A stretch of DNA of 64,000 bases, from NCBI RefSeq assembly GCF_051903065.1, contig NZ_CP178438.1; one strand, written 5' to 3'. Both the position numbers and the translations under genes were made by a program. Origin of the DNA: Escherichia coli (GTDB lineage: Bacteria > Pseudomonadota > Gammaproteobacteria > Enterobacterales > Enterobacteriaceae). The notes beneath the pieces are model-generated. The model was given only the letters and a program-made list of their open reading frames with translations. It ran no database searches and had not been told where the DNA came from. How positions within the stretch are numbered: position 1 is the first letter of the stretch; every line of letters starts with the position of its first letter. Below, piece after piece: positions 22,960 through 26,559 of this stretch.

Positions 22960-23251
22960 CTACTTTTCCTTGATGCTATAGGGGTGCTGAGACCGATAAC
23001 GCATTTTGTAAACCATCCCTGTGAGAGCGAATATTCCGATATCTGGTTATTAATTTATGATTCTTGTTTTATGTGATCGTGGTAGCGTTAATTCCGCTCA
23101 TATGTCATTGTAAAATATGGATTTTATATGAACTATAATGCTTTCGTGATAATACGCTGCGTGTATTAGGCGGAAAAAACTGATCTGGGGGATGTAGAAA
23201 CTCAAGGAAGTAGCTATAATGCGCCCCGCCTCCATGTAGCAATCGAGGCGC

Positions 23252-23346
23252 GGAAGATCGTCGTCTCCGGTGAGGCGGCTGGACTTCAAATCCAGTTGGG
23301 GCCGCCAGCGGTCCCGGGCAGGTTCGACTCCTGTGATCTTCCGCCA
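23252..23346 (+). tRNA. selC: tRNA-Sec (selenocysteine tRNA, UCA anticodon)
   Basis: 95 nt sequence GGAAGATCGTCGTCTCCGGTGAGGCGGCTGGACTTCAAATCCAGTTGGGGCCGCCAGCGGTCCCGGGCAGGTTCGACTCCTGTGATCTTCCGCCA read directly; matches E. coli selC. Confidence 0.97.
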
Positions 23347-23645
23347 GTTTACCTCTTCTGAACTCTCCCAATGTCAATAAATCTCTTCTAATCCCTTGTA
23401 TATCAGTATTTATTTGTATCCAGAGGTCAACCTACTTCACCCCGTATCAAGTTTCTTTTGGGGGTACTTTAGGGGGTGTTATTTCCTATTGAAATACCAG
23501 CACCCCCATAATAGGAAAAATGTGATATATAACAACGGCTTTTAACAACATCTTTGTTATACAAGGGGTGTATTGGGGGTATCAGGTTAGTTACTGGCAG
23601 AAATCCCCCTCAGGAACATGAATTCATCAAAAGCCGGAGGATGTC

Positions 23646-24422
23646 ATGGCATTAACCGATATCAAAGTGAAAACCGCAAAACCCAAAGACAAACCCTATA
23701 AGCTTGCTGATGGCGGCGGTATGTATCTACTGATTAACACTAATGGTTCTAAATACTGGCGCATGAAGTACCGCTTTGCTGGTAAAGAAAAGATGCTTTC
23801 TATTGGCGTATACCCCGATGTAACGCTAGCCGATGCTCGCGAGAAACGCAGTGAAGCCAGGAAACTCCTCGCTGCTGGAGGCGATCCAGGGGAGGCAAAA
23901 AAGGAAGAAAAAATCGCGCAGCAAATGAGTCTGCAAAATACGTTCGAGGCTATTGCTCGCGAATGGCACCAGTCAAAAGCCGATCGGTGGTCATTACGCT
24001 ATCGTGATGAAATCATTGATACCTTTGAAAAAGACATTTTTCCCTACATTGGCAAGCGCCCTATTGCCGAAATCAAACCAATGGAGTTACTGGAAGCACT
24101 GCGTAAAATGGAAAAACGTGGAGCTCTGGAGAAAATGCGCAAGGTCCGCCAGCGCTGTGGTGAGGTGTTCCGCTATGCAATTGTTACTGGCCGGGCAGAC
24201 TATAACCCAGCCCCCGATCTTGCCAGTGCTTTAGCTACACCGAAAAAAGTACATTTTCCCTTTCTTACTGCTAATGAACTTCCCCACTTCCTCAACGATC
24301 TGGCGGGTTATACCGGAAGTATAATCACTAAGACAGCTACTCAGATCATTATGTTAACCGGCGTACGAACACAAGAACTGCGTTTTGCACGCTGGGAAGA
24401 TATCGATTTTGAGACAAAATTG
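23646..24422 (+). pseudogene. P4-type (tyrosine recombinase) integrase, N-terminal about 259 codons only; truncated by IS insertion
   Basis: MALTDIKVKTAKPKDKPYKLADGGGMYLLINTNGSKYWRMKYRFAGKEKMLSIGVYPDV... is a typical P4-like integrase N-terminus; reading frame runs into the IS inverted repeat and stops; catalytic C-terminal half is absent. Confidence 0.85.
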
Positions 24423-25479
24423 GGCTTTGTTGAATAAATCGAACTTTTGCTGAGTTGAAGGATCAGATCACGTATCTTCCCGACAACGCAGACCGTTCCG
24501 TGGCAAAGCAAAAGTTCAAAATCACCAACTGGCCCACCTACAATAAAGCCCTCATCAACCGTGGCTCCATAACTTTCTGGCTGGATGATGAAGCTATTCA
24601 GGCCTGGTATGAGTCAGCAACACCTTCTTCACGAGGCAGACCTCAGCGCTATTCTGACCTTGCCATCACGACTGTGCTGGTCATTAAACGCGTATTCAGG
24701 CTGACCCTGCGCGCTGCGCAGGGCTTTATTGATTCCATTTTTTCTCTGATGAACGTTCCGCTACGCTGCCCGGATTACAGCTGTGTCAGCAGGCGGGCAA
24801 AGTCGGTTAATGTCAGTTTCAAAACGCCCACCCGGGGTGAAATCGCACACCTGGTAATTGATTCCACCGGGCTGAAGGTCTTCGGTGAAGGCGAGTGGAA
24901 AGTCAAAAAGCATGGCCAGGAACGCCGCCGTATCTGGCGTAAGCTGCATCTCGCCGTTGACAGTAAAACACATGAAATCATCTGCGCTGACCTGTCGCTG
25001 AACAACGTTACGGACTCAGAGGCCTTCCCCGGGTTAATCCGGCAAACCCACCGGAAAATCAGGTCAGCCGCCGCCGATGGCGCTTACGATACCCGGCTAT
25101 GTCACGATGAACTGCGGCGTAAGAAAATCAGCGCGCTTATCCCTCCCCGAAAAGGTGCGGGTTACTGGCCCGGTGAATATGCAGACCGTAACCGTGCAGT
25201 GGCTAATCAGCGAATGACCGGGAGTAATGCGCGGTGGAAATGGACAACAGATTACAACCGTCGCTCGATAGCGGAAACGGCGATGTACCGGGTAAAACAG
25301 CTGTTCGGGGGTTCACTGACACTGCGTGACTACGATGGTCAGGTTGCAGAGGCTATGGCCCTGGTACGAGCGCTGAACAAAATGACGAAAGCAGGTATGC
25401 CTGAAAGCGTGCGTATTGCCTGAAAACACAACCCGCTACGGGGGAGACTTACCCGAAATCTGATTTATTCAACAAAGCC
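24423..25479 (+). mobile_element. IS903-like insertion sequence (IS5 family), 1057 bp with 18 bp terminal inverted repeats
   Basis: Left end GGCTTTGTTGAATAAATC at 24423-24440 and its exact inverse GATTTATTCAACAAAGCC at 25462-25479; single DDE transposase ORF inside. Confidence 0.88.
24500..25423 (+). CDS. IS903-family DDE transposase
   Basis: ORF ...AKQKFKITNWPTYNKALINRGSITFWLDDEAIQAWYESATPSSRGRPQRYSDLAITTVL... with DDE-type motifs (DSTGLKV, ADGAYDT); start uncertain (GTG at 24500 or upstream TTG at 24455). Confidence 0.85.
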   Translation: MAKQKFKITNWPTYNKALINRGSITFWLDDEAIQAWYESATPSSRGRPQRYSDLAITTVLVIKRVFRLTLRAAQGFIDSIFSLMNVPLRCPDYSCVSRRAKSVNVSFKTPTRGEIAHLVIDSTGLKVFGEGEWKVKKHGQERRRIWRKLHLAVDSKTHEIICADLSLNNVTDSEAFPGLIRQTHRKIRSAAADGAYDTRLCHDELRRKKISALIPPRKGAGYWPGEYADRNRAVANQRMTGSNARWKWTTDYNRRSIAETAMYRVKQLFGGSLTLRDYDGQVAEAMALVRALNKMTKAGMPESVRIA

Positions 25480-25767
25480 GGATTTCATCTGAACAACGGC
25501 CCACAGGCCGATCGACTTGCCGACCTGGAAAGAATGCTGCATCTGTTCAGCGGCAAACCGATCCCCGACAACCGGGAAAACATCACTATTCATCTGAATG
25601 AGCACATCCGGTCTGTTCAGGGTAAAGAGTGCTATGAAGATGAAATGTTCAGCATCAGATACTTTAAGAAGGGCTCCGCGCACATCACGTTCAGGAAACC
25701 AGAACTGGTTGATCGGCTAAATGATATTATAGCCAGACACTATCCGGAAATGTTACCTTCACAATAG
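25480..25767 (+). pseudogene. Orphan 3' fragment of an unidentified island gene, open from the IS edge (C-terminal 95 codons)
   Basis: Frame is open from the first base after the IS right end (GFHLNNGPQADRLADLERMLHLFSGKPIPDNRENITIHLNEHIRSVQGKECYEDEMFSIRYFKKGSAHITFRKPELVDRLNDIIARHYPEMLPSQ*); no upstream start or RBS context; family not recognised. Confidence 0.4.
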
Positions 25768-25899
25768 AGTACTAAGAATTGATTCAATTATGTATTTTAG
25801 CTTCATTCCTTCATGCAAAATCATTTGGGGGTTCTTATGGGGGTTACTCATTTATCCAACACATACAAATTATTTAAGATCAATGCATTAATACTTATA

Positions 25900-25922
25900 T
25901 TCGACTCCTGTGATCTCCGCCA
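25900..25922 (+). repeat. Imperfect direct repeat of the selC 3' end (attR-like island boundary)
   Basis: ttcgactcctgtgatctccgcca matches the tRNA 3' end ttcgactcctgtgatcttccgcca (23323-23346) except for one missing T. Confidence 0.75.
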
Positions 25923-26559
25923 AAATGCCTCTCCTGACGTTCTCCAACCCCTTGTAATACTGTCAATCCAGATATTTTCTACTGCTCAATATTCAATCGG
26001 CTTCAGGAATACCTGGTCTAAGGTTTTGTGATGGACGATGAGCGGCTGAAGAATCCGCCTGTCGGTTCTTCTGTCCTCGAACGCATCCGCGATATTCACG
26101 CCAGTATGCGCCGTGTTTATTTGCAGGTGATTTGCCCCCCTGCTGACTCTCAGCCAACTGTATCGCCATTAAGGTGAAGATGTTGTTTTACTCGCCCCAG
26201 AACACCCTTTTTTATACGACTATTCTATTTCTTTAACCGCTGGCGAAAAAAAACTGACTATAAACTTCACCAATAATCAGACTGCCATCAAGATTAATTT
26301 GTTCATTTAATATATCAAATCAACTTGTTTTATTTTTACTATCAAAAATAGCTCATTGCCTTACTATAATTAATATATAAATTCGGTAATTAATTCTTAA
26401 CATGCTTTTACTAATAATCTCAATTGCTGGCCCTATAATATTGCGCTAGCATTGCTTTCTGGTTGTATCAGCGATACTCAAAAATTCTTAATACAATACT
26501 CATTCGACTGGTACTTATTTGTAACTCAGTTATATTTTTTCGCCCGGTGATTCAGAAGA

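Follow-up and report, generated by a model that had tools for sequence, protein, structure and literature searches.

Immediately downstream of an insertion sequence (IS) in the chromosome of Escherichia coli, a reading frame of 95 codons is open from the very first base after the element. Which gene did this frame belong to, how did it become joined to the IS, and what was lost on the way? A first-pass annotation, made from the sequence alone, had described it as the C-terminus of a gene whose body was lost, without start codon context and of a family that could not be assigned. Here, the locus was followed up by computational analysis. The window is the whole stretch of 64,000 nucleotides that was analyzed (NCBI RefSeq assembly GCF_051903065.1, contig NZ_CP178438.1), and all positions refer to it. 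The coordinates of the features are summarized in Table 1.

The Frame Next to the Insertion Sequence Is the 3' End of a DUF4942 Gene

Translation of 25480-25767 yielded 95 codons followed by a TAG stop codon, ending ...FRKPELVDRLNDIIARHYPEMLPSQ (GFHLNNGPQ...HYPEMLPSQ), and together with the repeats of the IS confirmed that the frame is open from the first base outside the element. The same frame is already open from 25405, within the IS. As the earliest in-frame ATG, GTG or TTG is located at 25534, there is no start codon at the junction between IS and tail, in agreement with the first-pass annotation. Using Pfam, the fragment was assigned to the family DUF4942 (PF13708) with 98.8 bits at a cut-off of 25 (E = 4.2e-28), thus the family turned out to be assignable after all; an NCBIfam search of the fragment matched no model. 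The Pfam match covers profile positions 105-190 of 190, i.e., the C-terminal 86 positions, while a complete member would show PF13708 1-190 in a protein of about 260-290 amino acids with an N-terminal helical region. The tail is a fragment of a DUF4942 family member, not a complete member.

The full-length homolog and its neighborhood, which had been proposed as a check, were found in the selC island of strain BE2-5. There, the intact gene of 281 codons (WP_000065752.1) is located at the same chromosomal position, beside setC. In the DNA alignment, identity to the BE2-5 gene starts exactly at 25480 (codon 187) and is 100% through the stop codon and beyond. Residues 187-281 of 281 were kept, the 5' 558 nt of the gene are missing, and the remainder is joined to the right end of the IS, just as expected for the C-terminus of a gene with a lost body. 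Using the tail plus downstream DNA as megablast query against 5,426 complete E. coli genomes, matches were obtained in 3,485 of them. The best 30 matches listed were 100% identical and all fell under a gene annotated as "DUF4942 domain-containing protein". Up to 6 matching DUF4942 places were found per E. coli genome, representing paralogs.

The tail was already known, since RefSeq lists a DUF4942 pseudogene. In strains 23CRST027 and 23CRST031, which contain the identical sequence, the NCBI annotation reads [quoted passage not shown], and the pseudogene corresponds to 25468-25767 of the window. The stretch 25480-25767 is the dead 3' end of a DUF4942 gene, an ordinary pseudogene and a case of gene decay that is already annotated.

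Table 1. Features of the selC locus in the window.
Feature	Position	Strand	Basis or remark
tRNA-Sec gene selC	23252-23346	+	ARAGORN; yicJ precedes
attL, last 24 nt of selC	23323-23346		Direct repeat and alignment with empty K-12 site
P4-type tyrosine integrase, 5' fragment	23646-24422	+	Codons 1-259 of 394
IS903B-type insertion sequence (IS5 family), 1,057 bp	24423-25479	+	Terminal repeats, transposase ORF, annotated copies
18-bp perfect terminal inverted repeats GGCTTTGTTGAATAAATC	24423-24440; 25462-25479	+; -	None expected by chance
Intact IS transposase ORF	24455-25423	+	Same strand as tail
DUF4942 tail, 3' remnant	25480-25767	+	Codons 187-281 and stop of 281-codon gene; pseudogene
attR, 23-nt imperfect copy (one base missing) of last 24 selC nt	25900-25922	+	
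rhuM pseudogene remnant	26001-26162	+	RefSeq annotation; outside island, also in K-12

The Locus Is the Scar of a selC Island

The order of the locus is yicJ, selC, integrase fragment, IS, DUF4942 tail, attR, rhuM remnant and setC. A tRNA gene at the border, an adjacent integrase gene, a repeat of 24/23 nt at the far end and an empty site elsewhere (K-12) characterize it as a tRNA-associated island. The islands LEE, SHI-2 and PAI I-536 likewise use selC. At the empty site of K-12, selC is directly followed by the rhuM remnant and then by setC, and a three-way alignment showed that the window is collinear with this site from attR onward. The rhuM remnant, which matches Pfam Virulence_RhuM weakly and below the family cut-off, is the scar of an older, different element and not part of the deleted island. 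The island scar itself comprises 23347-25899 (2.55 kb), with DUF4942 as the last island gene, 133 nt before attR.

At the other end of the scar, the open reading frame of the integrase fragment enters the IS by 4 codons and stops at 24437. The Pfam domains Arm-DNA-bind_3 and Phage_int_M are complete in the fragment, and Phage_integrase is represented only by positions 2-58 of 172. RefSeq lists the fragment as a pseudogene; the intact integrase gene of BE2-5 is WP_001218910.1. An intact, excision-capable integrase is missing in the window, as the gene is cut after codon 259 of 394 with the catalytic domain largely lost, and the 2.55-kb scar is therefore unable to excise on its own. A 24-nt motif with two GGGGGT half-sites was observed both at 23454-23477, 108 nt after selC, and at 25821-25844, 56 nt before attR (83% identity). 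The two copies are plausibly candidate arm-type binding sites of the integrase on both island arms.

Relatives With an Island Indicate What Was Lost

Positions 23200-24422 of the window (yicJ-selC spacer, selC and integrase fragment; 1,223 nt) are 100% identical to BE2-5. On the other side, identity is 99.6% over the 1,121 nt that reach from 25480 into setC, and 100% for the tail and attR. Between these two breakpoints BE2-5 carries 29,080 bp, and its whole island measures about 30.6 kb. The cargo comprises a TPR protein, a LacI regulator, an MFS transporter, a GH31 glycosidase and ykgR, furthermore SSB, TrbC, a 3.5-kb autotransporter, zinc-ribbon proteins and a phytase-like esterase, as well as toxin fragments and several IS elements. 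In strain EC931, a selC island of about 17 kb shares both its ends and the core cargo with that of BE2-5.

According to the first-pass annotation, identification of the tail would indicate what the lost island carried. This held only in part. Since many tRNA-associated islands of E. coli end in a conserved DUF4942 gene, the identity of the gene alone does not reveal the cargo; information on the cargo came from the island-bearing strains BE2-5 and EC931. By comparison with these relatives, the lost island would have carried a sugar-utilization cluster, an autotransporter and remnants of conjugation genes. What exactly the direct ancestor carried is uncertain, as islands with identical ends differ in content, at sizes of about 30.6 kb (BE2-5) and about 17 kb (EC931). 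The DUF4942 gene of EC931 has lost its 5' part as well; 163 codons remain next to a fragment of IS30 (record L017, 35362-35853). This truncation is independent of the one in the window, and the island erodes repeatedly from within.

Origin of the Junction

The perfect 18-bp repeats at 24423-24440 and 25462-25479 delimit the IS to 24423-25479 and make 25480 the first base outside. Terminal inverted repeats of 18 bp, a length of about 1,057 bp and a single IS5-type DDE transposase are the features of the IS903 group. The transposase open reading frame matched NCBIfam transpos_IS5_2 over its full length with 357 bits (IS5-family, DDE type), the element is 99.6% identical to a copy annotated as IS903B, and in 23CRST031 it is annotated as "IS5-like element IS903B family transposase". 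The transposase frame, intact in the window, is annotated as frameshifted in both RefSeq records with the shared arrangement. In a C-run of the transposase gene at about 25024-25027 the window has one C more than these two records, which could be due to assembly of the homopolymer or to true variation. Beyond the terminal repeats, the 19 nt on either side of the IS (24404-24422 and 25480-25498) are complementary at 12 of 19 positions; in the intact island, 29 kb separate the sites of these two flanks.

The 9-mers flanking the IS differ (ACAAAATTG versus GGATTTCAT), hence the element has no 9-bp target-site duplication. This is expected for the product of a deletion or recombination and not for a simple insertion, and points to an IS-associated deletion. 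As a control, target duplications were checked at seven other IS903-type copies. Perfect 9-bp duplications were found for three of the seven, and three of the four copies without duplication were located at or beside a truncated gene. Adjacent deletions by IS903 were reported to be common, and copies without duplication were attributed to these or to recombination between IS copies (PMC11708052). The host genome contains about 20 places matching the IS ends compared to a median of 1-2, indicating an active IS.

Taken together, we are highly confident that the tail is the remnant of the terminal gene of a selC island, generated by an IS903B-associated deletion which left one IS bridging two truncated genes. 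In such a scenario, the ancestral island would have had its P4-type integrase gene beside selC and its DUF4942 gene 133 nt upstream of attR, with a size of about 30.6 kb if it was similar to that of BE2-5. An IS903B-type element would have become associated with a deletion from integrase codon 259 to DUF4942 codon 186, corresponding to the 29,080 bp of the BE2-5 coordinates, and a single IS copy without target-site duplication would have been left between the two truncated genes. The likeliest routes would be an adjacent deletion by intramolecular transposition, starting from a primary insertion in either gene, or homologous recombination between two copies of IS903B, both of which are equally in line with the sequence.

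Synthetic junction queries, consisting of IS903B with a target duplication inside the intact DUF4942 or integrase gene, revealed no insertion intermediate in either gene among the 5,426 complete genomes. The sole high-coverage match to an intermediate query came from an intact DUF4942 gene that is followed by an unrelated IS. Directly shown are the nature of the fragment, the two breakpoints, the DNA that is missing and the lack of a target duplication; the order of events, including which end was affected first, the mechanism of deletion and the inactivity of the remnant are inferred. The arrangement of the window was found in 2 of the 5,426 genomes, namely in 23CRST027 and 23CRST031, both from human faeces (Santo Domingo, Ecuador). 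A tail without mutations compared to the intact allele, together with its presence in only these two genomes, points to a recent event. The first-pass interpretation of a gene tail fused to an IS after loss of an island was essentially right, and the case is one of IS-associated deletion at a well-known island integration site.

A Second IS903-Type Junction at serX

In strain EC596, a paralogous DUF4942 gene of the serX island is directly adjoined by an IS903-type element in the same orientation (record L005, 8060/8061). The two junctions are 1 bp apart (…CAAAGCC/GATTTCATCTT versus …CAAAGCC/GGATTTCATCTG; slash, junction). As in the window, the IS of EC596 has no target duplication, and the remainder of the island was lost. 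The tail of EC596 shows 100% identity to intact copies at serX, compared to about 92% to the tail of the window. Both tails match the intact allele of the locus in which they are located without any difference, so that the selC and serX events were independent.

The recurrence of the breakpoint at codon 186/187 may be a coincidence or reflect an unrecognized hot spot. We regard it as rather unlikely that this codon of DUF4942 genes is a preferred breakpoint of IS903-type elements. With a score of 3/10 at either real register, the published IS903 target motif WTTYA-N9-TRAAW (PMC2577343) does not rise above the background of the DUF4942 gene and was rejected as explanation of the recurrent breakpoint. 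Matches of 14-18 nt past the IS end at unrelated loci were found to be ordinary flanks picked out by the ranking. If the hot spot were real, an unrecognized target determinant, for example local DNA structure, could be behind the recurrence; alternatively, selection might retain the final ~95 codons along with the DNA next to attR. Concerning the layout, serX islands have their DUF4942 end at a distance of about 150 bp from the tRNA-Ser gene, measured to the 3' end of the latter (records L015, 5442-6521, and L016, 5440-6519). The tRNA-Ser gene of serX is encoded on the opposite strand, and the DUF4942 end, not the integrase, adjoins the tRNA gene, which is the reverse of the selC layout.

The Remnant Is Probably Inactive

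The remnant has lost its start codon and promoter region, the entire helical domain at the N-terminus and strands 1 and 2 of the C-terminal sheet, which makes an active protein very unlikely. No promoter-like site was found upstream of the tail. Judged from its sequence, the remnant is probably inactive. In principle, a peptide of 77 amino acids is conceivable if transcription continues out of the transposase gene and translation starts at the internal ATG at 25534. On this basis, one might regard the tail as a functional small gene, encoding either this 77-amino-acid protein or a longer product read through from the IS, provided that the C-terminal part of DUF4942 is able to act alone and was kept for this reason. 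The frame is intact and without mutations, three of the four family-invariant residues (D201, H254, N267) are in the retained part, the paralog at serX was cut at almost the same codon, and the transposase gene on the same strand could supply transcripts. Nevertheless, we consider a functional gene highly improbable. The 100% identity to the intact allele and the occurrence in only two sister genomes speak for recency rather than selection, and neither a promoter-like site nor a start codon is present at the junction. Moreover, the cut lies inside a predicted beta-sheet and removed the helical domain of 136 residues, and the tail of EC931 has another length (163 codons), hence there is no conserved truncated form.

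Even less credit is given to a joint arrival of IS and tail from another locus, by recombination between paralogous islands or IS-mediated mobilization and without any deletion in place. Several DUF4942 paralogs per E. coli genome, in up to 6 places, and the nearly identical IS-tail junction at serX of EC596 would be in line with such a transfer. However, from the first base through attR into setC the window carries the allele of the selC locus (100% for tail and attR, 99.6% over 1,121 nt), while the tail of EC596 is the serX allele with about 92% identity to that of the window, and the two junctions differ by 1 bp. A donor locus with identical junction and identical tail allele was not found among the 5,426 genomes. 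Finally, a chance open reading frame in non-coding DNA is refuted, as stop-free frames of this length do occur in 128 of 20,000 shuffles (about 0.6%), but the Pfam DUF4942 match (E = 4e-28), the 100% identity to the 3' end of an annotated intact gene and a coding-like GC content by codon position (0.54/0.32/0.55) leave no room for it. The first-pass annotation had named a lack of homologs and noncoding codon usage as arguments against a gene tail; homologs as well as a coding-like GC content by codon position were found.

Preferring the in-place deletion, we conclude that the fragment most probably marks a recent IS903B-associated loss of a selC island in one E. coli lineage. What remains is an immobile scar, which can be used as a marker of the lineage and is a textbook case of how islands are eroded by IS elements. 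As an ordinary and already annotated case of gene decay, the fragment itself is of little significance.

The Parent Family DUF4942

DUF4942 is a very common gene at island ends, and a dead copy adds nothing on its function. In the intact E. coli protein of 281 amino acids, the DUF4942 profile (1-190) covers residues 87-276 and is the only Pfam match. The AlphaFold2 model of the full protein is confident (pLDDT 88.6, pTM 0.82) and predicts a helical domain (24-159) followed by a C-terminal beta-beta-beta-alpha-alpha-beta-beta-beta-alpha unit (174-273). In the C-terminal sheet, residue 187 is located where strand 3 begins. Searching with this model, no clear relative was found among solved structures. 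PDB sequence and profile searches with the protein yielded nothing significant, and the full protein matched no defence system in PADLOC.

The family is large, with 2,205 representatives (E<=0.001) in a library that was clustered at 50% identity. Of these, 150 were listed, and the majority of them are stand-alone proteins of about 260-290 amino acids. Across 81 diverse homologs W95, D201, H254 and N267 are invariant; the tail keeps the latter three and has lost W95. Rare distant homologs of 468 amino acids (P0226, P0227) contain an additional C-terminal amino-/adenine methyltransferase domain with EPSAG... and NPPF motifs, and phrog_6263, a phage family containing the DUF4942 domain, is labelled DNA methyltransferase. 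Methyltransferase domain and NPPF motif are confined to these homologs and to phrog_6263. These fused homologs and the label of the phage family explain database names such as "restriction methylase". One DUF4942 database entry is named Aec79. The E. coli protein itself does not qualify as a DNA methyltransferase, which would be recognized by SAM-binding and catalytic (N/D)PP(F/Y) motifs, as it matches DUF4942 alone and lacks such a domain. The methyltransferase fusion is the sole functional hint for the family, and a DNA-associated accessory role in the establishment of the element would be only a guess, drawn from the gene context.

In strain JJ2434 the DUF4942 gene is the last of a module with the order Ag43, IrmA, DUF905, DUF932, antirestriction protein, RadC/JAB, DUF987, hypothetical protein, YeeU antitoxin, CbtA toxin, DUF5983, DUF957 and DUF4942. 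Strains MY203L1 and HL15 contain a shorter version of this type of module, also ending in DUF4942. Several chimeric open reading frames, each restricted to a single genome (P0005, P0007, P0028, P0034, P0042), combine an N-terminus derived from a GTPase, an antirestriction protein, CbtA, DUF932 or RadC with a complete DUF4942 domain. They are probably the result of in-frame internal deletions within the same island module.

Comparison With Known Systems

According to the citations of Chouikha et al. (2006) in PMC4807369 and PMC12928451, AGI-3 of the avian strain BEN2908 is a selC-associated island. The region of irmA downstream of agn43 and yeeR was termed "module 5 of AGI-3" (PMC4807369), and the sugar locus of AGI-3 is the GH32 fos locus (PMC3325963). 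The island of the window resembles selC islands such as AGI-3 in integration at the 3' end of selC, in an integrase gene next to the tRNA gene and in a far-side repeat of the tRNA end, and its intact relatives share with them sugar-utilization cargo and an autotransporter. It differs in being reduced to a 2.55-kb scar. Furthermore, the intact relatives carry a LacI-MFS-GH31 cluster, in contrast to the GH32 fos locus of AGI-3, which was compared by description only; with this difference, an identity of the lost island with AGI-3 is unsupported.

Compared to reported deletions by IS903 and IS903B, the window shows the same signature, a single IS without target duplication bridging two unrelated truncated genes (PMC11708052). 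It is unusual only in the second junction, 1 bp off, at serX.

Relatives of the DUF4942 protein include L0010 of the LEE-flanking region of O157:H7 and orf56 of the Shigella SRL island (PMC6980539). These DUF4942 proteins of E. coli and Shigella tRNA islands belong to the same family, and there, too, the gene closes a conserved module. In the intact island of BE2-5, by comparison, the rest of the module was already replaced by IS elements, and in the window only codons 187-281 of the closing gene remain.
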